From the sequence record OP172792: 64,000 bases of DNA; one strand, written 5' to 3'. The translations under genes were made by a program, and so were the position numbers. The notes beneath the pieces were generated by a model. It did no database searches, was not told the origin of the DNA, and worked only from the letters and a program-made list of their open reading frames with translations. This DNA comes from Escherichia phage ECO340P2. Position 1 is the stretch's first letter; each line of letters begins with the position of its first letter. Below, in pieces: positions 8,340-44,196 of the stretch.

Positions 8340-8469
8340 TAAATACTAATATTTAAATTCTTTTTAAAATAGCCAGTGTTCACACCACTAACTATGAGTT
8401 ATCGGTAAAGTGGTTACCGCCACTTGCCGAAGATTTACTCTGCTAAAGTAAGCTATATTAAAAAGAACT

Positions 8470-8555
8470 TGGCGGTAGATGTAGGACTCGAACCTACACG
8501 CCGTTTCCGACTACAGTTTAGCAAACTGTCGTGGCTACCATTTCACCAATCTACC
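8470..8555 (-). tRNA. tRNA-Ser (anticodon GCT), type II
   Basis: acceptor GGTAGAT/ATCTACC, G73, anticodon arm ACAGT-TTGCTAA-ACTGT, long variable arm, T-loop TTCGAGT. Confidence 0.85.
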
Positions 8556-8560
8556 TAATC

Positions 8561-8651
8561 TGGCGGAAGGAGGGAGAGTCGAACTCCCAAGGCTCTTTCA
8601 AGCTCGGCGGTTTTCAAGACCGTTTTCGTCGCCACGTCGATTTGCCCTTCC
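8561..8651 (-). tRNA. tRNA-Ser (anticodon TGA), type II
   Basis: acceptor GGAAGGG/TCCTTCC, G73, anticodon loop CTTGAAA, long variable arm, T-arm GGGAG/TTCGACT/CTCCC. Confidence 0.8.
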
Positions 8652-8660
8652 ATACTTATA

Positions 8661-8689
8661 ATCTAACATAAAATAATGTTAGTTGTCAA
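8661..8689 (-). promoter_or_regulatory. sigma70-like promoter (TTGACA-17-TTAGAT) upstream of the right tRNA sub-cluster
   Basis: reverse complement CTATTGACAA motif about 30 nt upstream of tRNA-Ser 5' end. Confidence 0.3.
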
Positions 8690-8884
8690 TAGTTTTTTAA
8701 AACATTTTACCATGAATGGTGACTCCACCAACCCCGTTCTCCACGAACGGTGCTCTTCGAGCATTTATGTCTTCTAATATAACCGTGGCCTTTGTTTATA
8801 ATGTCTGACATACTTGCCTCATTCTCTGCCACCATGATCAGTAGTGGGTTCAAATCACTTGAGCTAATTCATGTTAAAATGTTC

Positions 8885-8959
8885 TGGTGTCTTTACAAGG
8901 AATCGAACCTTGACTAAGAGTTTAGAAGACTCCTGTGCTATCCATTACACCATAAAGAC
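8885..8959 (-). tRNA. tRNA-Arg (anticodon TCT)
   Basis: acceptor GTCTTTA/TAAAGAC, anticodon arm GGAGT-CTTCTAA-ACTCT, T-arm CAAGG/TTCGATT/CCTTG, CCA. Confidence 0.85.
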
Positions 8960-8961
8960 GT

Positions 8962-9036
8962 TGGTGGCCCTGGCTGGTTTCGATCCAGCTACCTATCGGT
9001 TATGAGCCGACAGCTCTCCCATTGAGCTACAGGGCC
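8962..9036 (-). tRNA. tRNA-Met (anticodon CAT; second copy, possibly a different CAT isoacceptor)
   Basis: acceptor GGCCCTG/CAGGGCC, anticodon loop CTCATAA, T-arm GCTGG/ATCGAAA/CCAGC, CCA. Confidence 0.8.
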
Positions 9037-12110: not shown

Positions 12111-12313
12111 TCCCTGTAGCTGGGTGGGTGGTATTGGCAACACTTAATGGGAATGTTACTGTGGAGACTAAAACCATCTTCAAAGCACCAGAAGATTGCT
12201 ATAACTCCTTGGTAACTTGGCCTCGTGATGAGGATGATAAGGCAGAGTATCAGTGTTTTTACATTGAGGGTAAGCCTGTAGAATTTGAGGTTAAAGTGAA
12301 GGAGGAAAAATGA
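12107..12313 (+). CDS. hypothetical protein
   Basis: ATG after GGAGG; ORF-track start 12089 is probably too far upstream. Confidence 0.45.
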   Translation: MIPVAGWVVLATLNGNVTVETKTIFKAPEDCYNSLVTWPRDEDDKAEYQCFYIEGKPVEFEVKVKEEK

Positions 12314-12780
12314 GAATTAAAGTAAATAAAGCTTACGATGATAACCCGAAGTTTATCTCTTTGAATAAGAGTTATGGTGTCGAAAACGGCGATGAGTTCG
12401 AGGTTATCGATCTTTTTGAGGATCACGGGTATATTGTCAAAGCCCCAATCACAGAGCAGCCTCTTATCATCTTACGCACAGAGGCTGTTGAGGTAGGTTC
12501 TGATGAGCCTCAATATGACAGCCCATACATGACAGAGTGGATTGTGGCTGTAGATGTTGGAGGCAGGGTTTCTGTATTGAAAGCTCCTAATCTCCATCCT
12601 AGTTTTACAGAGAACGGTTTGACAGCTTTGGATTACGGGTTGCCAGAAGATGTTGAGAATACACCGCCAGGTATGTACCGTTGGATTTGCTCTTTCCATG
12701 AAGAGAAGGATTGGGAATCAGGTCTTGTGGAGGATTGGCATTTTGAAGTGGAGAGTTCTTTTTTAATCATGCCAGCTTAG
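12310..12780 (+). CDS. hypothetical protein
   Basis: 156 aa ORF, RBS GGAGG. Confidence 0.55.
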   Translation: MRIKVNKAYDDNPKFISLNKSYGVENGDEFEVIDLFEDHGYIVKAPITEQPLIILRTEAVEVGSDEPQYDSPYMTEWIVAVDVGGRVSVLKAPNLHPSFTENGLTALDYGLPEDVENTPPGMYRWICSFHEEKDWESGLVEDWHFEVESSFLIMPA

Positions 12781-12790
12781 AGGAGGTTAT

Positions 12791-13135
12791 ATGAAAGTTT
12801 GGATAGATGATATGCGTAACCCAGCCGACTATGGACAGGAAGATGCAATTTGGTTTAAAACGTCACAAGAAGCTATGGCTTTTCTCAATGATCCTGCTAA
12901 ACTGTATCGAAGAGTAACCGAGTGGTCTTTTGACAATGATTTAGGTATGGAGTCAGACCAAGATGGGTATGATGTTTTCCTGTACCTGGAAGAACTTCTG
13001 GCGTTTGGTAAACCTTGCTTTGGTTCACCTACCATTTTCGTGCATACTTCTAATCCCGCCGCTGGGGATAAATTCATGCTTGCAAAAGAATCCATGCTGC
13101 GTTATGGTATTAAAATGATTCGTGTGCACTATTAA
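12791..13135 (+). CDS. hypothetical protein
   Basis: 114 aa ORF, RBS GAGGAGG. Confidence 0.55.
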   Translation: MKVWIDDMRNPADYGQEDAIWFKTSQEAMAFLNDPAKLYRRVTEWSFDNDLGMESDQDGYDVFLYLEELLAFGKPCFGSPTIFVHTSNPAAGDKFMLAKESMLRYGIKMIRVHY

Positions 13136-13144
13136 GGAGAGAAC

Positions 13145-13288
13145 ATGCATCATTCGGTTTGGTCGGAACAAGAAGAGGACGAAGGTTACTTTATCTACCG
13201 AGAAGAAGAGGATTGGCCCGACACAAGTAATGATCTTTTACTTCCAGATACTAGTTTTTTCGAGGATAACTTAAGAGAGGAGGGTTAG
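13145..13288 (+). CDS. hypothetical acidic small protein (47 aa)
   Basis: AAGGAGA RBS 5 nt before ATG; fills a gap the ORF track missed (below 60 aa). Confidence 0.4.
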   Translation: MHHSVWSEQEEDEGYFIYREEEDWPDTSNDLLLPDTSFFEDNLREEG

Positions 13289-13294
13289 GAAACA

Positions 13295-13651
13295 ATGAGT
13301 GGTATTGAAAACAATATTTGTTACCAACCTCTTACCTGGATTGGTGAGGGTCATTATGCGCAACGTGTTATCGTCTGTGCTGCAAATAAGTATATTTTGA
13401 ATAATGGTGAAGAGTTAATTATTCCTTGTGTTCGACATGCAAATCCTGTACTATATGCACAGTTAAACGTGTTGAAAGAAGCAGGTGTAATCAACAAAAC
13501 TTTGTGCACACCAGATAATCAAGGCTTTATCGATCAGTATTACAATTGGTGGAGTCGTGCGGATGCTTATATCATCGCGGAAAATGCTGACCAGATCGAC
13601 CATGAGCGTAATGGTCACGACCATGAACTATTTAGCGAGGGATTATACTAA
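13295..13651 (+). CDS. hypothetical protein
   Basis: 118 aa ORF, RBS GAGGAGGG. Confidence 0.55.
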   Translation: MSGIENNICYQPLTWIGEGHYAQRVIVCAANKYILNNGEELIIPCVRHANPVLYAQLNVLKEAGVINKTLCTPDNQGFIDQYYNWWSRADAYIIAENADQIDHERNGHDHELFSEGLY

Positions 13652-14202
13652 TGTTTATTACAAGTGATTTGCATTTTATGCACAAACGTATACGAGAGTT
13701 TGCTCCTGAATATCGACCGTGGGAAGATATGGACCACATGACAGAAGCACTGATCGAAGCATGGAATAAATGCGCTACGAGTCCAGGTGTCAAGATGTGG
13801 CATTTGGGTGACTTCTGTTTCGGGACTGAAGAAGATACCCGTAAGATTGCTTCCCGCCTCCAAGGGGATATCACTTATTGTGTTGGGAACCATGATTACA
13901 GCAAACACCGAGAAGTGCTTGCAGAGTATGGAGAAGTGGTGTATTATGACGAAGTGAAATATCAGAAGCTGTTCTTCGTCTTAAGCCATTACCCTATGGC
14001 CTCCTGGAATAAGCAAGGTCGTGGATCAATCATGCTACACGGGCATTCCCACGGATCTTTCCCTGATGAAGCTTATGGTAAAATGTTAGATGTGGGTTGG
14101 GATGCACACGGAAAAATCTTACATTTTGATGAGATAATTTCTATGATGAGTAAACGAGATATCGTAACTGTAGACCATCACAAAATAATCAAAGGAGAGT
14201 AA
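13651..14202 (+). CDS. calcineurin-like metallophosphoesterase (candidate RNA 2',3'-end phosphatase)
   Basis: motifs DLHFMH, GDFCFG, GNHD, GHSHG; directly upstream of RNA ligase and kinase. Confidence 0.7.
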   Translation: MFITSDLHFMHKRIREFAPEYRPWEDMDHMTEALIEAWNKCATSPGVKMWHLGDFCFGTEEDTRKIASRLQGDITYCVGNHDYSKHREVLAEYGEVVYYDEVKYQKLFFVLSHYPMASWNKQGRGSIMLHGHSHGSFPDEAYGKMLDVGWDAHGKILHFDEIISMMSKRDIVTVDHHKIIKGE

Positions 14203-14203
14203 T

Positions 14204-15136
14204 GTGGCTAAATTTAATTGCGACGATTTAGTTGAAAAAGGTTTAGTTCATAAGAAAACATATAAAGAAGGAGAGTATTCTGGTCTATCTGTTCTTAAGT
14301 ATAAGAACAAAGTTTTCTGGGATAACCTATGGAACATTGATTCTCGTCTTCTAGAATGTCGCGGAATCGTTGTTGACGCTGATGACAATGTTGTTATTTG
14401 GCCTTTCACTAAGATTTTTAATCGTTTTGAGAATGGCACAGATCTACCAGCGGATGAATTTGTAGATGTTGTTCGTAAAGTAAATGGTTTTATGGCCTCT
14501 GTAGGTGTATATAAAGGTCAACTTATCGTATCGACAACAGGAAGCCTTGAATCAGATTTTGCAAGTATTGCAAAGAATCATATTGTTTCAGAGTGTGATG
14601 ACATAGAACACTTCATCAAATGGACAGAAAGTGCAAAAGCAACTTTCCTTTTTGAAATCTGTGATCCTTCTGATCCGCATATTGTCGAAGAAGAACCAGG
14701 TGCATACTTAATTGGTGCCAGAATTCAAAACCCTGATGGGACAAGTTTTATGTTACCTGAAGGTGCTCTTGATGGAATTGCTTCTGTCACCAAATTTAAG
14801 CGTCCTGAAGTTCATCCGATGGTTAAGTTTTCAGATGTTGTTGAAATGTCTAAAGATTGTAAACACGAAGGGTTTGTAGTTCGTGAAACAAACTATCCGT
14901 TTAACTTACTCTTAAAGATTAAGTCACCATACTATCTTACTAAGAAGTTTCTTATGCGCGGTGGAGATAAAAAGTGGGATCTGATTTGGGATAATCCAAA
15001 AAATGCCAAACAAATTGTTGACGAAGAATATTACGCTTTGTTAGAATGGATTCGAAATAATTTTACGAAGACTCAATGGGTTGCTTTAAATCAGCAAGAG
15101 CGACGTGAAAAAATCGAAAACTTCTTTGGAGGATAA
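14204..15136 (+). CDS. rnlA: RNA ligase 1 (T4 RnlA-like)
   Basis: 310 aa; ECRGI, KIFNRFENG, KVNGFMASV (nucleotidyl-lysine motif), TTGSLESDFA match recalled T4 Rnl1 blocks. Confidence 0.75.
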   Translation: MAKFNCDDLVEKGLVHKKTYKEGEYSGLSVLKYKNKVFWDNLWNIDSRLLECRGIVVDADDNVVIWPFTKIFNRFENGTDLPADEFVDVVRKVNGFMASVGVYKGQLIVSTTGSLESDFASIAKNHIVSECDDIEHFIKWTESAKATFLFEICDPSDPHIVEEEPGAYLIGARIQNPDGTSFMLPEGALDGIASVTKFKRPEVHPMVKFSDVVEMSKDCKHEGFVVRETNYPFNLLLKIKSPYYLTKKFLMRGGDKKWDLIWDNPKNAKQIVDEEYYALLEWIRNNFTKTQWVALNQQERREKIENFFGG

Positions 15137-15541
15137 ATGAAACAACTTATCATTTTACGTGGCGTTTCAGGTGCTGGTAAATCTACAGTAGCAGAAATTA
15201 TTTCTGAAGGTTATTGGCCTATCTGTGAGGCAGATCAATATCATTACACAGAAAGTGGTGTTTACGATTGGAAGCCAGAAAATGTAGGTAAAGCACACGC
15301 ATGGTGTCAGAGTATTGTTCGTGATGCTATGGCATCTAATCTTAACAAGATTATTGTTTCTAACACTTCAACCACAGAGAAAGAACTTAAACCTTATCTA
15401 GCTCTTGCTGAAGAGTTTGGTTATCAAGTTATCTCTTTAGTTGTTGAAAATAGGCACGGTAATGATTCAATTCACGAGGTTCCACAATATATCCGTGATC
15501 AGCAAGAGAAACGTCTTCGTGGTTCACTTAAACTTCAATAA
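15137..15541 (+). CDS. P-loop kinase, polynucleotide 5'-kinase-like
   Basis: Walker A GVSGAGKST at N-terminus; 134 aa, size of Pnk kinase domain; adjacent to RNA ligase. Confidence 0.6.
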   Translation: MKQLIILRGVSGAGKSTVAEIISEGYWPICEADQYHYTESGVYDWKPENVGKAHAWCQSIVRDAMASNLNKIIVSNTSTTEKELKPYLALAEEFGYQVISLVVENRHGNDSIHEVPQYIRDQQEKRLRGSLKLQ

Positions 15542-15550
15542 GGAGAAATA

Positions 15551-15877
15551 ATGCAGATTTATACAGATGATCGTAAATATGAGACAATTTTAGATGAAGA
15601 TACTGGACGAATTACCGTTCTCCGTCACGGTGAAGAGTGGCGTGATGAAACGGGAGACAATTATATCTTGTCTCTGATTCATCTTATTGAACAAATGCGT
15701 GATGATTACGCTGAACTGCATTATGAAAATGAGGCTAATAAAGTAAAATTTGAAAATGAATTAGAAGAGAAAGAATCCGAAATGGTATATCTAAAAGAAG
15801 AGATCTCCCGTTTGGAGGAAGAGATTGATGCTCTTCAAGAAGAGATTTACGAACTCAACAACGAACTTAACGCTTAA
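15551..15877 (+). CDS. hypothetical coiled-coil protein
   Basis: 108 aa; Glu-rich heptad repeats at C-terminus. Confidence 0.5.
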   Translation: MQIYTDDRKYETILDEDTGRITVLRHGEEWRDETGDNYILSLIHLIEQMRDDYAELHYENEANKVKFENELEEKESEMVYLKEEISRLEEEIDALQEEIYELNNELNA

Positions 15878-15886
15878 GGAGGGATT

Positions 15887-16078
15887 ATGAAAAAAGATAT
15901 CGTTGTTGTTGGTTGGCTGACTTGCCCTTGTGGTAGTAATGACATAACTGTAAACACAGAGGGTGATAAAAATTATTTATTCTACGGGGATAAAATCACT
16001 TGCAATACCTGCGGACGTGTTGGTATTATAGAAACCGATGATTGTTGTGCTTTTGAATCTTGGGATGAAGAAGAATGA
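15887..16078 (+). CDS. hypothetical zinc-ribbon protein
   Basis: 63 aa; CPCG ... CNTCG cysteine pairs. Confidence 0.5.
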   Translation: MKKDIVVVGWLTCPCGSNDITVNTEGDKNYLFYGDKITCNTCGRVGIIETDDCCAFESWDEEE

Positions 16079-16296
16079 GTACTGCATTTTATGTTCGTAG
16101 CGGAGACGAGGATTTTCTAGCTACTTTTGATGACGGTGATCTTGAAGATATGTATGAAGATATGTTTGACTATGCCAAAGGGCAAGGTTTCACAAGCATT
16201 GATTACATGTTGGCAACATCTACAACGTTACTCGACGCAGATTTGGATGAAGTGTGTAACAGATTGAAAATTTCAGTTTTTAAATGGGAGGACTAA
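16075..16296 (+). CDS. hypothetical acidic protein
   Basis: 73 aa ORF. Confidence 0.5.
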   Translation: MSTAFYVRSGDEDFLATFDDGDLEDMYEDMFDYAKGQGFTSIDYMLATSTTLLDADLDEVCNRLKISVFKWED

Positions 16297-17411
16297 TGCA
16301 ACAAACAAATCAAACGCTGTATGGTAAAGATTCAAAAGGAAAACTTAAACAGTGGACAGTGTATACAGATGGTGCAGTTGTTACTGTAGCTCATGGAAGA
16401 GTAGGTGGAAAAATCACAGAAAAATCTTATACAGCAGAAGCAAAAAACATTGGTCGTTCCAATGAAACAACACCGGAAGAACAAGCTGAACTTGAAGCTT
16501 TTGCCAAATGGACAAAACAGTTAAAGAATGGCTATTATAAAACAAAAGAAGAAGCTGAAAACCATGTTCCTTCCACACCAATGAAATGCCAGGATTATAA
16601 AGATTATCCTGAAAGGGTTGTGTTCCCTGGTTATGCACAATACAAACTGAACGGGTTACGTTCTATGATTAACATGAAAGGAGAGTGTTTATCAAAAGCT
16701 GGGGAAGTGTATAACCTGCCACCTCATTGGAAAGGTATTCCAAACTTTATTAGTGAAGTTGTTGGTCATCCTCTTGATGGTGAAGTGTTTGCTGGGTTAG
16801 GTGTCCTTAGTCTGCAACAAATTAACAGCGCCTGGAAGAAGCATAATGCAAATACACCTTTGCTGAATTATTACGTATACGATATTCCAGTTCCAGATCT
16901 ACCGTTTGAAAAACGTGTTGATGTTCTTGCTGCTCTTAAGGCAGTAGTTGAAGATTATGGTCTTGATGAGCTTATTTGTGTAGTTCATACAGAGTATATT
17001 GAAAACCAAGAACAGTTTGATGCTTTCTATGAAAAAGCTTTACTTGAGAAAGCTGAAGGTGTAGTATATCGTAATGCTCACGGAGTTTACGAATTTGATA
17101 AACGTTCTTATGACGTTATTAAACGTAAGCCTCGCCATACCCTTGAAGTTAAAGTAACAAATTCAAAAAGTGATAAAAATGGCGATGGAGTGTTGACAGG
17201 TGAGATGGAAAATGGTAAAGTAGTCGAATTCTTAATGCGTAAAGATGCTCATGAGACTATCAATTATCGTAAAGCAGAGAATGCTTCTACCTTGATTAAT
17301 CAGTTCGTTGAAATAGAATATGAAGAATTTTCAGATGAAGGTATTCCAACAAAACCTGTTGGTGTTCGTATTCGAGAAATGATCCCAGGCACTTGGGAAC
17401 CAGCAGAGTAA
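16296..17411 (+). CDS. ATP-dependent DNA ligase
   Basis: adenylation motif KLNGLR, motif III PLDGEVF, motif V EGVVYR, motif VI VIKRKP; ATG after GGGAGG (ORF-track start 16284 is 4 codons earlier). Confidence 0.75.
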   Translation: MQQTNQTLYGKDSKGKLKQWTVYTDGAVVTVAHGRVGGKITEKSYTAEAKNIGRSNETTPEEQAELEAFAKWTKQLKNGYYKTKEEAENHVPSTPMKCQDYKDYPERVVFPGYAQYKLNGLRSMINMKGECLSKAGEVYNLPPHWKGIPNFISEVVGHPLDGEVFAGLGVLSLQQINSAWKKHNANTPLLNYYVYDIPVPDLPFEKRVDVLAALKAVVEDYGLDELICVVHTEYIENQEQFDAFYEKALLEKAEGVVYRNAHGVYEFDKRSYDVIKRKPRHTLEVKVTNSKSDKNGDGVLTGEMENGKVVEFLMRKDAHETINYRKAENASTLINQFVEIEYEEFSDEGIPTKPVGVRIREMIPGTWEPAE

Positions 17412-17656: not shown

Positions 17657-18382
17657 ATGATCGAGAATTTTTTTAAAGATATTAAATTCGATACTGAATT
17701 TTTCAAAAATGCAGCAAAGCACGTGATTGATTGGAATGCCAAAGCACGAGGTGGTGAACAACCTGAATTCACTCAAGAGCTATTTATGTCTCAAATCGGG
17801 TTCGTTCGTGAAGAGCTTAAAGAGTATGAAACAGCCGCGAAAGTAAACGATCATGTAGAACTCTTGGATGCAGCAGCGGATATTTTTGTAGTATCCAGTT
17901 ATCTGACTTACATGTTCTTTGGTGAAGAACATACGATGAATTTCTTGGACTATGCTGTAGGCGATGTTTTTACTCCAACTGTGTATACCGATTTCGATGC
18001 TTTGGAACAAACATTTACAGAGCCAGTTCAAATGGCGCTAATGGCTGCGGGTATTATGCGTATGTCTCGTGACACTCTAATCCGTTCAAAATATCCAGAA
18101 AAGAAAGTTATTAAAGAGGTATTGAAAAGTAATGATTCCAAGTATCCAACTAAACAACAGTTGCTGAAAACTTGGAAAACTTCAGATATCGATTCAGCCA
18201 TTGCACAAGAATGCGCTGCAATTGAAGAACGAAATGCCAATCGTCCAGAAGGGGCATACACTGGTGTTCATGCCGTTTATAATGAAAAACAGAAAGTGTA
18301 TGTGTTCTTTGATGATAAAGGTAAGATCATGAAACCATCGACCTTTGTCAAACCTAATATTGCAGGTATTATTAACAAGTAA
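17657..18382 (+). CDS. hypothetical protein, possible MazG-like nucleotide pyrophosphohydrolase
   Basis: 241 aa; EELKEYETAAK...ELLDAAADIFVV resembles the MazG EExxE...D pattern; weak. Confidence 0.45.
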   Translation: MIENFFKDIKFDTEFFKNAAKHVIDWNAKARGGEQPEFTQELFMSQIGFVREELKEYETAAKVNDHVELLDAAADIFVVSSYLTYMFFGEEHTMNFLDYAVGDVFTPTVYTDFDALEQTFTEPVQMALMAAGIMRMSRDTLIRSKYPEKKVIKEVLKSNDSKYPTKQQLLKTWKTSDIDSAIAQECAAIEERNANRPEGAYTGVHAVYNEKQKVYVFFDDKGKIMKPSTFVKPNIAGIINK

Positions 18383-42910: not shown

Positions 42911-43396
42911 ATGTTTCAAGTAAATGTCAATGTGCATAATAGTTACTCTGATTGTGAAACGTGTGGCTATAGTTCATCTAATGTTGTTCGTATCAGTGGT
43001 GATTTGGGAGAAGCTTCTTTTGGAGAAGAAGCAAGTTGCTTTAGCGGTATGGATGCAGAATGGAATGATATTGCACATTGGTTGGTGAGCAAACTAAAAG
43101 AAAAAGAGAAACCATTTCCTACTCTGCTTGATCGTTCTCTTGTAGAAGACGCAGGTAAAGCCTATGCAGATTACGCTTATGCAGATGGGAAGTACTTGGA
43201 AGATGACAAGGCTAACCATTTGCTTTATGTTTACTATGAAGCTGAAGCTGCCTATGATAATTATTATAGTATGTCCAATATCTTACGGCTATTTGCAGAG
43301 TTTGATATCTATTTTGAAGTAGAGTTTTCAGAAGATGATACTTACGAGTATGATTCTTATGATCCATTTGAGGAGGAAGAATGCCAAGACGAGTGA
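42911..43396 (+). CDS. hypothetical highly acidic protein
   Basis: 161 aa; Asp/Glu/Tyr-rich C-terminal half; 3' end overlaps the Sir2 gene start. Confidence 0.5.
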   Translation: MFQVNVNVHNSYSDCETCGYSSSNVVRISGDLGEASFGEEASCFSGMDAEWNDIAHWLVSKLKEKEKPFPTLLDRSLVEDAGKAYADYAYADGKYLEDDKANHLLYVYYEAEAAYDNYYSMSNILRLFAEFDIYFEVEFSEDDTYEYDSYDPFEEEECQDE

Positions 43397-44196
43397 TTTT
43401 TGTAAGTGGTGCAGGTTTAAGTGCAGACAGTGGGATTCGAACATTCAGAACAGACACAGATAGCGGTCGTGCTTTATGGGAAGAATACGATTTAGAAGAG
43501 GTCTGCAATATTGGAGCTTTCCAAGCAGGTTATCGTGTGAGAACATCTCCAGATCTTCCGGTGGTTGGAGGTGTAGACGAGAACGGTATAGATTTATATG
43601 CCAAAACACACGAATTTTATAACAAAAGACGTGTTGAGCTTAAAAACGTACAACCTAATGCTGCGCATCTTCAAATAGCCAAATGGTTTAAGGAATATCC
43701 TAACCAGGTAGTAAACTTGACAACAAATGTCGATGATCTACTAGAGCGAGCAGGGGTAGACAGGGACTCGGTTGTTCACGTGCACGGTTATCTTCCTGAA
43801 GTAGTCTGCCGTATGCACCCTGGAGATTACAAAACACTGGTGGATATTGGTTACAATAGTATAAACATAGATGATTATAACTGGGTGAAGCCTAATGTAG
43901 TCTTCTTTGGGGAAGCTGCTCCACTTTACACGGATATGTATCATATTTTTGATACATTGACGTCTCAAGATATGGTGATTGTAGTAGGCTGCTCTAATCA
44001 AGTTATCAATTTTAACTGGGAGCTTTTTCCTGCTCTTAACATCGGGACAAAAATGGTCGTAGTTAATCCAGGAGTTAATTACGAAGAAACACTTCTCTAT
44101 GAAGATCGTGGAGTTTTTGTTTACCGAGAAAAAGCTGTAACAGCCTTCAGTAATGAAGGTTTCATTAAAATGGTCGAAGACCACTTAAACAAATAA
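43381..44196 (+). CDS. Sir2-family (sirtuin-like) NAD-dependent protein
   Basis: N-terminal VIFVSGAGLSADSGIRTFR matches the sirtuin NAD-binding signature GAGxSxxSGIPxFR. Confidence 0.7.
   Translation: MPRRVIFVSGAGLSADSGIRTFRTDTDSGRALWEEYDLEEVCNIGAFQAGYRVRTSPDLPVVGGVDENGIDLYAKTHEFYNKRRVELKNVQPNAAHLQIAKWFKEYPNQVVNLTTNVDDLLERAGVDRDSVVHVHGYLPEVVCRMHPGDYKTLVDIGYNSINIDDYNWVKPNVVFFGEAAPLYTDMYHIFDTLTSQDMVIVVGCSNQVINFNWELFPALNIGTKMVVVNPGVNYEETLLYEDRGVFVYREKAVTAFSNEGFIKMVEDHLNK

Follow-up and report, generated by a model that had tools for sequence, protein, structure and literature searches.

The 64,000-nucleotide stretch of Escherichia phage ECO340P2 analyzed here (sequence record OP172792; hereafter the window) comes from a Phapecoctavirus, a phAPEC8/ESCO13-like myovirus of E. 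coli with a genome of about 150 kb. Between positions 13651 and 15541 it carries three consecutive genes whose products are predicted to be a metallophosphoesterase (MPE), an RNA ligase and a P-loop kinase, and which together would heal and seal RNA by a pathway of T4 type, with each enzyme on a polypeptide of its own. A preliminary description of this DNA had placed three such genes here; the open reading frames (ORFs) are exactly as it gave them and the domain calls agree (PF00149, PF09511 and PF13671):

13651-14202, + strand: MPE, 183 aa, ATG start; core gene, predicted 3'-end healing
14204-15136, + strand: RNA ligase, 310 aa, GTG start; core gene, predicted sealing enzyme
15137-15541, + strand: P-loop kinase, 134 aa, ATG start; core gene, predicted 5'-end healing

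Judging from the GC skew and from the annotation of a relative, the three genes belong to an extended + strand run of early genes for replication and nucleotide metabolism. Gaps within the three-gene block are 0 to 1 nt long, Shine-Dalgarno sequences are embedded in the preceding gene (AAGGAG..TAAtGTG and GGAGGATAAATG), and the MPE start overlaps the upstream gene, which encodes a Y16D-like protein, as TAATG. Because of these short gaps, internal ribosome binding sites and overlap, translational coupling of the three genes is suggested. Scans for consensus promoters (34 promoter-like sites vs 28 expected) and for terminators (9 terminator-like sites vs 5 expected) were uninformative on the transcription unit, and a PADLOC scan yielded one weak P-loop match and no sign of defence genes. 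More than 50 deposited genomes are 97-98% identical to window positions 12300-16300, and the labels "putative RNA ligase", "putative polynucleotide kinase" and "metallophosphatase" are already present in GenBank. Over 4 kb, E. coli Phapecoctavirus genomes share 97.7-97.9% identity with two records that name other hosts, MG065650.1 (Campylobacter phage B15) and OP562383.1 (Acinetobacter phage vB_AbaM_ABPW7); these host labels look doubtful and may stem from contamination or mis-assignment.

Catalytic motifs and relatives of the three enzymes

The ligase matches the Pfam family PF09511 (RNA_lig_T4_1) with 59.3 bits against a cut-off of 28.3, its residues 51-244 covering the full model, and its best PHROG is the RNA ligase family phrog_562 (1.1e-69). 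A profile built from 29 ligase sequences found T4 Rnl1 as its sole PDB match (E 1.5e-10) and aligned residues 48-238 of the ligase with 51-249 of the T4 enzyme. The motifs K92-V-N94-G95, E151, E222-G223 and K238-x-K240 are invariant in these 29 and in nine diverse ligase sequences; K92, E151, E222/G223 and K238/K240 correspond to K99, E159, E227/G228 and K240/K242 of T4 Rnl1. In the N-terminal subdomain R53, K70 and F72, likewise invariant, match T4 R54, K75 and Phe77. The essential residues of T4 Rnl1 all have invariant counterparts in the ligase with the exception of Lys119, to which we return below. The role of the Rnl1-specific N-terminal residues (T4 Arg54, Lys75 and Phe77) has been described (PMC6379707).

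In fold searches the ligase, a predicted ATP-dependent adenylyltransferase, sides with the Rnl1/Trl1 clade; Rnl3, Rnl2, Rnl5 and DNA ligases rank lower. The top rank in Foldseek was the ligase domain of Trl1 (Trl1-LIG), with longer alignments, and sequence profiles gave no link from the ligase to Trl1, even at E values up to 10. The last 65 or so residues form short helices that are conserved throughout the clade, with motifs such as DEE[FY]Y and QERR, and show no clear match to the C-domain of Trl1. Because of this C-terminal module of its own, a threonine at motif Ia and a failed match to the T4 RnlA equivalog model, we regard the ligase, on its sequence, as a distinct sub-type of the Rnl1 clade that is devoid of the motif Ia lysine. 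Homologues amount to 2,678 clusters at E up to 1e-5, and the clade is nearly confined to viruses, given that a pattern-limited scan of 185,579 species genomes returned four matches.

The kinase belongs to PF13671 (AAA_33; 41.3 bits vs a cut-off of 27) and matches phrog_2071, ATPase (2e-56), and more weakly phrog_505, polynucleotide kinase (2.7e-8). The best PDB match of its profile was Pnkp1 (4xrp); other top relatives were the stand-alone RNA kinases of Mucorales (9d8a/9drz), T4 Pnk (1ly1/1ltq) and the kinase domain of CthPnkp (4gp7), and there was no nucleoside monophosphate (NMP) kinase among its best solved relatives. The P-loop G9-VSGAG-K15-S16 is invariant, and so is the catalytic aspartate D33, which aligns with D35 of T4 Pnk and also with Pnkp1. 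R106 (in ENRHG) and H113 are invariant as well, R106 lying beyond the region aligned to T4 Pnk, whose lid arginine is Arg126. These relatives and motifs support the prediction that the 134-aa protein acts as a stand-alone P-loop polynucleotide 5'-OH kinase. An exhaustive profile search recovered 9,189 representative clusters of this family at E up to 1e-10.

The MPE matches PF00149 (Metallophos) with 25.4 bits against a cut-off of 21.5, and its best PHROG is the phosphoesterase family phrog_547 (8.7e-56). Its metal-binding motifs are complete in 34 sequences: H8, G53-D54, G79-N80-H81, H113 and G131-H132-x-H134 are invariant and D6 is conserved in at least 90%. The best profile match is Aquifex aq_1665/COG4186 (1xm7; E 3.5e-23), which is not a protein phosphatase, followed by GpdQ-like and YfcE-like proteins at 1.6e-3 or weaker. 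The enzyme is predicted to act as a 2',3'-cyclic phosphodiesterase, a 2'/3'-phosphomonoesterase or both. Both activities have been demonstrated for binuclear MPEs, that of the RNA repair enzyme CthPnkp and that of lambda phosphatase (PMC2190708).

Conserved linkage and domain fusions

Eighty viral loci with relatives of the ligase (30-86% identity) were collapsed to 55 clusters at 80% ligase identity, and their ORFs were labelled with iterated hidden Markov models (HMMs) built from the window proteins. Genes within 6 kb of the ligase gene were counted as neighbours and those at less than 300 bp as adjacent, with the following results:

Phosphoesterase: neighbour in 49/55 loci, adjacent in 30, median gap 154 bp
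Kinase: neighbour in 45/55 loci and fused in two further clusters, adjacent in 31, median gap 43 bp
DNA ligase: neighbour in 22/55 loci, adjacent in 0, median gap 1856 bp
NAPRTase-like: neighbour in 23/55 loci, adjacent in 1, median gap 3.3 kb

The association of MPE and kinase with the ligase is far beyond chance, the kinase being adjacent or fused to it in 33 of the 55 loci. At least five gene orders occur, including MPE-ligase-kinase, kinase-ligase-MPE, ligase-kinase-MPE, ligase-MPE-kinase and one divergent arrangement, and the linkage holds down to 30% ligase identity. Since the gene order is shuffled, the linkage must be kept by selection and not be inherited synteny.

The same activities are also joined physically. 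Kinase::ligase fusions of about 430 aa were found in some ten contigs and in one further protein (P0425). The top matches of the kinase profile search included the reverse fusion, ligase::kinase (P0388), three HD::kinase proteins (P0401, P0446 and P0477) and a kinase combined with a 2H-CNPase, a cyclic phosphodiesterase (CPDase) domain (P0472). All three domains of the window module are united, in the order kinase-Metallophos-ligase, in two single polypeptides: L089:3654-5867 (737 aa), from Novimethylophilus kurashikiensis (NZ_BDOQ01000007.1), and L090:3570-5945 (791 aa). Their kinase and phosphatase domains match CthPnkp (4j6o at 1.3e-21 for the MPE domain of L089; 4gp6 at 5.5e-7), and their ligase domains are 33-35% identical to the window ligase and Rnl1-like rather than Rnl4. 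On these matches we regard both proteins as hybrids in which the Pnkp lineage meets that of the T4/Trl1 ligases. Their architecture is probably also that of phrog_8238, with its profile of 737 positions. In another locus (L043:8518-9597) a second, Rnl2-like RNA ligase (PF09414 plus a PHA02142 OB domain) is encoded 1.7 kb downstream of a kinase::ligase fusion gene.

This repeated physical or genetic joining to the ligase clade supports a joint function of 5' kinase, 3' phosphoesterase and ligase. The preliminary description had already proposed a joint heal-and-seal module, which the shuffled but conserved synteny and the fusions, above all the kinase-metallophosphoesterase-ligase polypeptide, bear out. 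Its view of the kinase as a stand-alone RNA-end kinase agrees with best solved relatives that are 5'-OH RNA/DNA kinases and include no NMP kinase, and the relationship to aq_1665/COG4186 sets the 13651 product apart from protein phosphatases. The comparison it drew between this phosphatase and that of bacterial Pnkp is right as to the fold class, but the two lie on different branches of the superfamily, making it an analogy and not an orthology. The limits that it gave, 13651-15541, hold for the three core genes and are too narrow for the whole, which extends to a probable accessory, the cREC gene at 12791-13135, and possibly to a displaced Sir2 gene at 43381-44196.

Genes surrounding the module

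Other features of the window that bear on the module are:

7114-9036, - strand: cluster of 10 phage tRNA genes (ARAGORN); context
12791-13135, + strand: cREC protein, 114 aa, PF20274; probable accessory
13145-13288, + strand: acidic ORF, 47 aa, between the cREC and Y16D-like genes
13295-13651, + strand: T4_Y16D family protein, 118 aa, PF26092; coupled gene, role unassigned
15887-16078, + strand: Cys-rich ORF, 63 aa, downstream of the kinase gene
16284-17411: ATP-dependent DNA ligase, 750 bp downstream of the kinase gene
17657-18382, + strand: MazG-like nucleotide pyrophosphohydrolase, PF01503; context
43381-44196, + strand: Sir2-family protein, 271 aa, PF02146; possible displaced partner

The cREC (cyclic-phosphate-processing receiver-like) protein matches PF20274 with 63.1 bits (cut-off 27). 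Across 11 sequences it keeps the acidic, Thr/Ser and Lys active-site residues of the receiver type, namely D6-D7, D48/D50 (in FDNDLG), the T/S of HTSNP and a K further along. Its gene lies beside the ligase gene in four of the seven non-redundant loci that have it; in rV5-like relatives it stands between ligase and kinase, in the window upstream of the MPE. Proteins of this family, which was defined in PMC7824862, have been predicted (PMC7824862, PMC9503650) to act on 2',3'-cyclic phosphate ends or on ADP-ribose 1''-2'' cyclic phosphate by opening the cyclic phosphate. The Sir2 protein scores 87.2 bits with PF02146, and an HMM of the Sir2 cluster obtained by unbiased clustering of the locus ORFs matches it at 7.4e-127. 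In 11 loci (L005-L013, L015 and L017) this cluster follows the kinase directly, at most 1 kb downstream. The window gene is an orthologue of the Sir2 gene that follows the kinase in rV5-like relatives but lies 28 kb from the ligase gene, where the + strand block ends and the GC skew changes sign; the gene is thus displaced in Phapecoctavirus relative to rV5-like phages. The protein has the motifs GAGxS...GIxxFR, TxNxDxL and HG and, in a reading of the sequence by eye, lacks the usual four-cysteine zinc module. A KptA/Tpt1-like role has been proposed for Sir2 (PMC9503650). Sir2 and cREC accompany the ligase in only 7/55 loci vs 49/55 for the phosphoesterase, so that the constant partners of the ligase clade are phosphoesterase and kinase, rather than Sir2 or cREC. 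No Tpt1/KptA or 2H enzyme was found among the recurrent neighbours of the ligase loci.

The MazG-like protein (PF01503, 28.2 bits; phrog_671, 7.5e-29) is weakly linked, its gene occurring within 6 kb of the ligase in 7/55 loci and never adjacent to it. The Y16D-like gene is coupled to the MPE gene. In distant phages it stands among genes that have nothing to do with RNA repair, and a confident structure model of the protein retrieved no structural relative; the gene probably does not contribute to the function of the module. A pair of NAPRTase-like (PF04095) and PRPP-synthetase-like (PF00156/PF13793) genes recurs near the ligase, in 23/55 and 19/55 loci respectively (examples, among loci L004-L083, are L014:2371-4734 and L065:7326-10164), and a Macro gene does so in 10/55. 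HMMs of the NAPRTase-like and PRPP-synthetase-like proteins detected nothing in the window. The pair resembles the two-enzyme NAD+ reconstitution pathway of phages.

Two small ORFs lie nearby. The 47-aa product, conserved among close relatives, is extremely acidic (MHHSVWSEQEEDEGYFIYREEEDWPDTSNDLL...) and might mimic DNA or a protein; the 63-aa product is zinc-ribbon-like, and its counterpart in Escherichia phage SKA64 is annotated as a Lar-family restriction alleviation protein. The acidic and the Lar-like ORFs suggest a counter-defence flavour for this gene block. SKA64 also differs from the window and from other Phapecoctavirus in an extra 609-bp gene, annotated as a "putative DNA binding protein", directly upstream of cREC (L001:3492-4100).

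The tRNA cluster lies 4.6 kb upstream of the module in divergent orientation, and ARAGORN calls its members as ordinary continuous genes. Clusters of at least three tRNA genes occur within 6 kb of the ligase in seven diverse loci. The phage tRNAs are candidate substrates of the module or a parallel anti-tRNase strategy, the link being weak. Near the module in metagenomic phages we also noted a tmRNA-like gene (L046:12177-12579), tRNA(CUA) genes resembling amber suppressors (L027:11576-11651 and L063:10734-10806) and, in one such phage, a tRNA call with a four-base anticodon (L015:270-367).

Proposed pathway and alternative explanations

We give a probability of roughly 60% to a three-enzyme RNA heal-and-seal pathway of T4 type, divided among separate polypeptides. 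Its basis is well supported computationally by the presence of the genes, their intact catalytic motifs, the fold and family membership of the products, the conserved linkage and the domain fusions. The MPE would turn 2',3'-cyclic phosphate, 3'-phosphate or 2'-phosphate ends into 3'-OH, possibly helped by cREC through opening of the cyclic phosphate, and the 134-aa kinase would move a phosphate from a nucleoside triphosphate (NTP) to the 5'-OH, giving a 5'-PO4 end. The ligase, adenylylated on K92, would then pass AMP to the 5'-phosphate and seal the break. Beyond this, which RNAs the enzymes act on (tRNA or others), how MPE and cREC would share the work and whether the module serves counter-defence are matters of inference. 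For the tRNA substrate and for counter-defence this is so because the ligase has no counterpart of the tRNA-specificity domain of T4 Rnl1. The target is probably tRNA cut by host defence nucleases; the T4 precedent makes counter-defence plausible, and so does the near restriction of the ligase clade to viruses.

Several observations weigh against this pathway. The tRNA-specificity C-domain of T4 Rnl1 (about 120 aa) is missing from the ligase, which also falls short of the T4 RnlA equivalog model TIGR02308 (24.9 vs a cut-off of 242). The motif Ia lysine, Lys119 in T4 Rnl1 and Lys169 in Chaetomium Trl1, is replaced by an invariant threonine, T112; Lys119 is reportedly essential for RNA adenylylation in T4. 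In the kinase the position of T4 Pnk Arg38, which contacts the 3' phosphate of the acceptor, is taken by a nearly invariant histidine, H36. The MPE profile finds neither CthPnkp (4j6o) nor lambda phosphatase, and the aq_1665 branch is itself uncharacterised. That cREC and MPE occur together, with Sir2 besides, may point to a chemistry more complex than this. tRNA genes stand within 6 kb of the ligase in only 12/55 loci, a count that has no proper baseline and was not used as evidence. Finally, a literature search on rV5-like and Phapecoctavirus phages found no biochemical or genetic work on any member of the module.

The main rival would be a Trl1/Tpt1-like route, in which cREC, or the MPE as a mere cyclic phosphodiesterase, leaves the 3'-OH,2'-PO4 end that the ligase would require as fungal Trl1 does. 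Sir2 would then strip the 2'-phosphate from the junction with NAD+, and the ADP-ribose cyclic phosphate formed in this step would be disposed of by cREC, MPE or Macro. This pathway was proposed in PMC9503650 and draws on the first rank of Trl1-LIG in Foldseek, on the Sir2 gene, which the window has too and which in 11 loci comes directly after the kinase, and on the Macro and NAD+-salvage-like genes that recur nearby. The ligase moreover has K-x-N-G in motif I and EGFVxR in motif IV as Trl1 does, where T4 has KEDG and EGYVA. Counted along the sequence, its residues N94, H159, K248 and R252 stand at motif offsets similar to those of the 2'-PO4 site of Chaetomium Trl1 (Asn150, His227, Arg334 and Arg337): the invariant H159 is at motif III +8 (His227 at +9), and the invariant K248 and R252 are at motif V +8 and +12 (Arg334 and Arg337 at +9 and +12). 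However, ligases fused to a Pnkp-type phosphatase, an enzyme that removes phosphates from the 2' and the 3' position alike, show these four residues with the same invariance, sequence profiles see T4 Rnl1 only, and Sir2 and cREC are far rarer partners than the phosphoesterase. We consider this route unlikely, and just as doubtful the notion that the ligase is a third, phage-specific Rnl1/Trl1 sub-type using 3'-OH,2'-PO4 ends, with a zinc-less Sir2 in place of Tpt1/KptA. If Sir2 did act as a 2'-phosphotransferase, this would be a viral counterpart of eukaryotic tRNA-splicing ligation, through a reaction not known for sirtuins.

The enzymes might instead serve mainly for the phage's own RNAs, in the maturation, circularisation or joining of phage tRNAs or other transcripts, as the ten-tRNA cluster at 4.6 kb, the tRNA clusters of seven diverse loci and the processing roles of Rnl-family ligases in archaea and eukaryotes would allow. 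Most loci with the three genes nevertheless have no tRNA genes nearby, the window tRNAs are continuous genes, and the recurrent neighbours are of the conflict type (Sir2, Macro, NAD+-salvage-like and Lar-like), which makes such a role improbable. About as improbable is a counter-defence set directed at NAD+ or nucleotide signals, with MPE and cREC degrading cyclic nucleotide or ADP-ribose signals and the P-loop protein acting as a small-molecule or nucleotide kinase. AAA_33 is indeed a broad family, in the literature the P-loop protein goes by the name "nucleotide kinase" and cREC figures in NAD+/ADP-ribose networks, and NAPRTase-like, PRPP-synthetase-like, Macro and Sir2 genes recur nearby. 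Yet fusions join the kinase to RNA ligase, in either order, and to the end-healing domains HD and 2H, the best solved relatives of the kinase are polynucleotide kinases, and MPE and kinase hug the ligase far more closely than any NAD+-related gene. We give least credence to DNA-end repair, whereby kinase and MPE would clean nicks for the DNA ligase and the "RNA ligase" would act on DNA or in a gp63-like attachment of tail fibres. It is in line with the DNA ligase gene at 16284-17411, a neighbour in 22/55 loci, with the GenBank label "tail fiber attachment catalyst" and with the phosphorylation of DNA by T4 Pnk and MciKIN that is stated in PMC11571804. The MPE also has a weak match to the PdeM model TIGR04123 (E 0.0044); a DNA-repair reading through this match was rejected, as it reaches 16 bits against a cut-off of 150.

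Comparison with known repair systems

In T4 the kinase of Pnkp (PseT) is fused to a HAD phosphatase, whereas the kinase of the window is a stand-alone protein of 134 aa and its phosphatase is a binuclear metallophosphoesterase. The partner of PseT, Rnl1 (gp63), differs from the window ligase in the tRNA-specificity C-domain and the motif Ia lysine, and the T4 genes pseT and rnlA are unlinked whereas the three window genes are adjacent. To our knowledge, T4 Pnkp and Rnl1 are the only phage RNA-repair counter-measure with experimental support. The bacterial Pnkp systems (Pnkp/Hen1 and Pnkp1-Rnl-Hen1) use the same three chemistries and fold classes, P-loop kinase, calcineurin-like MPE and ATP-dependent ligase. 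Pnkp/Hen1 does so, however, in one kinase-phosphatase-ligase polypeptide with a Hen1 2'-O-methyltransferase as partner, in contrast to the three separate ORFs of the window, and no methyltransferase domain was detected in the nine ORFs scanned between 12310 and 18382. Mucorales have their RNA kinase and RNA ligase as separate enzymes (PMC11571804, PMC10946426). Compared with fungal and plant Trl1 and with the split ligase and kinase that Mucorales use in tRNA splicing, the window module is without a 2H cyclic phosphodiesterase, Tpt1 and a Trl1-type C-domain, Sir2 being a hypothetical substitute for Tpt1.

The neighbourhood type as such has already been predicted by comparative genomics (Iyer et al. 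2021-2022; PMC7824862, PMC9503650). The type 2 sirtuin-centred neighbourhood of Escherichia phage V5 and Proteus phage Mydo (PMC9503650, section 3.7.3) consists of a T4-like tRNA ligase, cREC, a nucleotide kinase, MazG, a calcineurin-like phosphoesterase and Sir2, and all of its components are found in the window. The phages on both sides are large, related coliphages. The arrangement is different, as type 2 has Sir2 adjacent and cREC between ligase and kinase, whereas the window has Sir2 28 kb away and cREC upstream of the MPE. The phosphoesterase, called occasional in that work, was the most constant partner of the ligase in our survey (49/55), where Sir2 and cREC were confined to a subclade. 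New here are the constant partners, the fusions across all three activities, the distinct ligase sub-type and the displaced Sir2.

Effectors that cleave RNA or tRNA are common in anti-phage defence and include PrrC, RloC, PARIS AriB, OLD, Cas13 and HEPN toxins. With 2,678 ligase clusters and more than 9,000 kinase clusters, a different, modular implementation of RNA repair is widespread. If active, the module would provide a compact source of stand-alone enzymes for healing and sealing RNA ends. It would also predict which phages escape RNA-targeting defences, and would bear on the choice of Phapecoctavirus and rV5-like phages for therapy.

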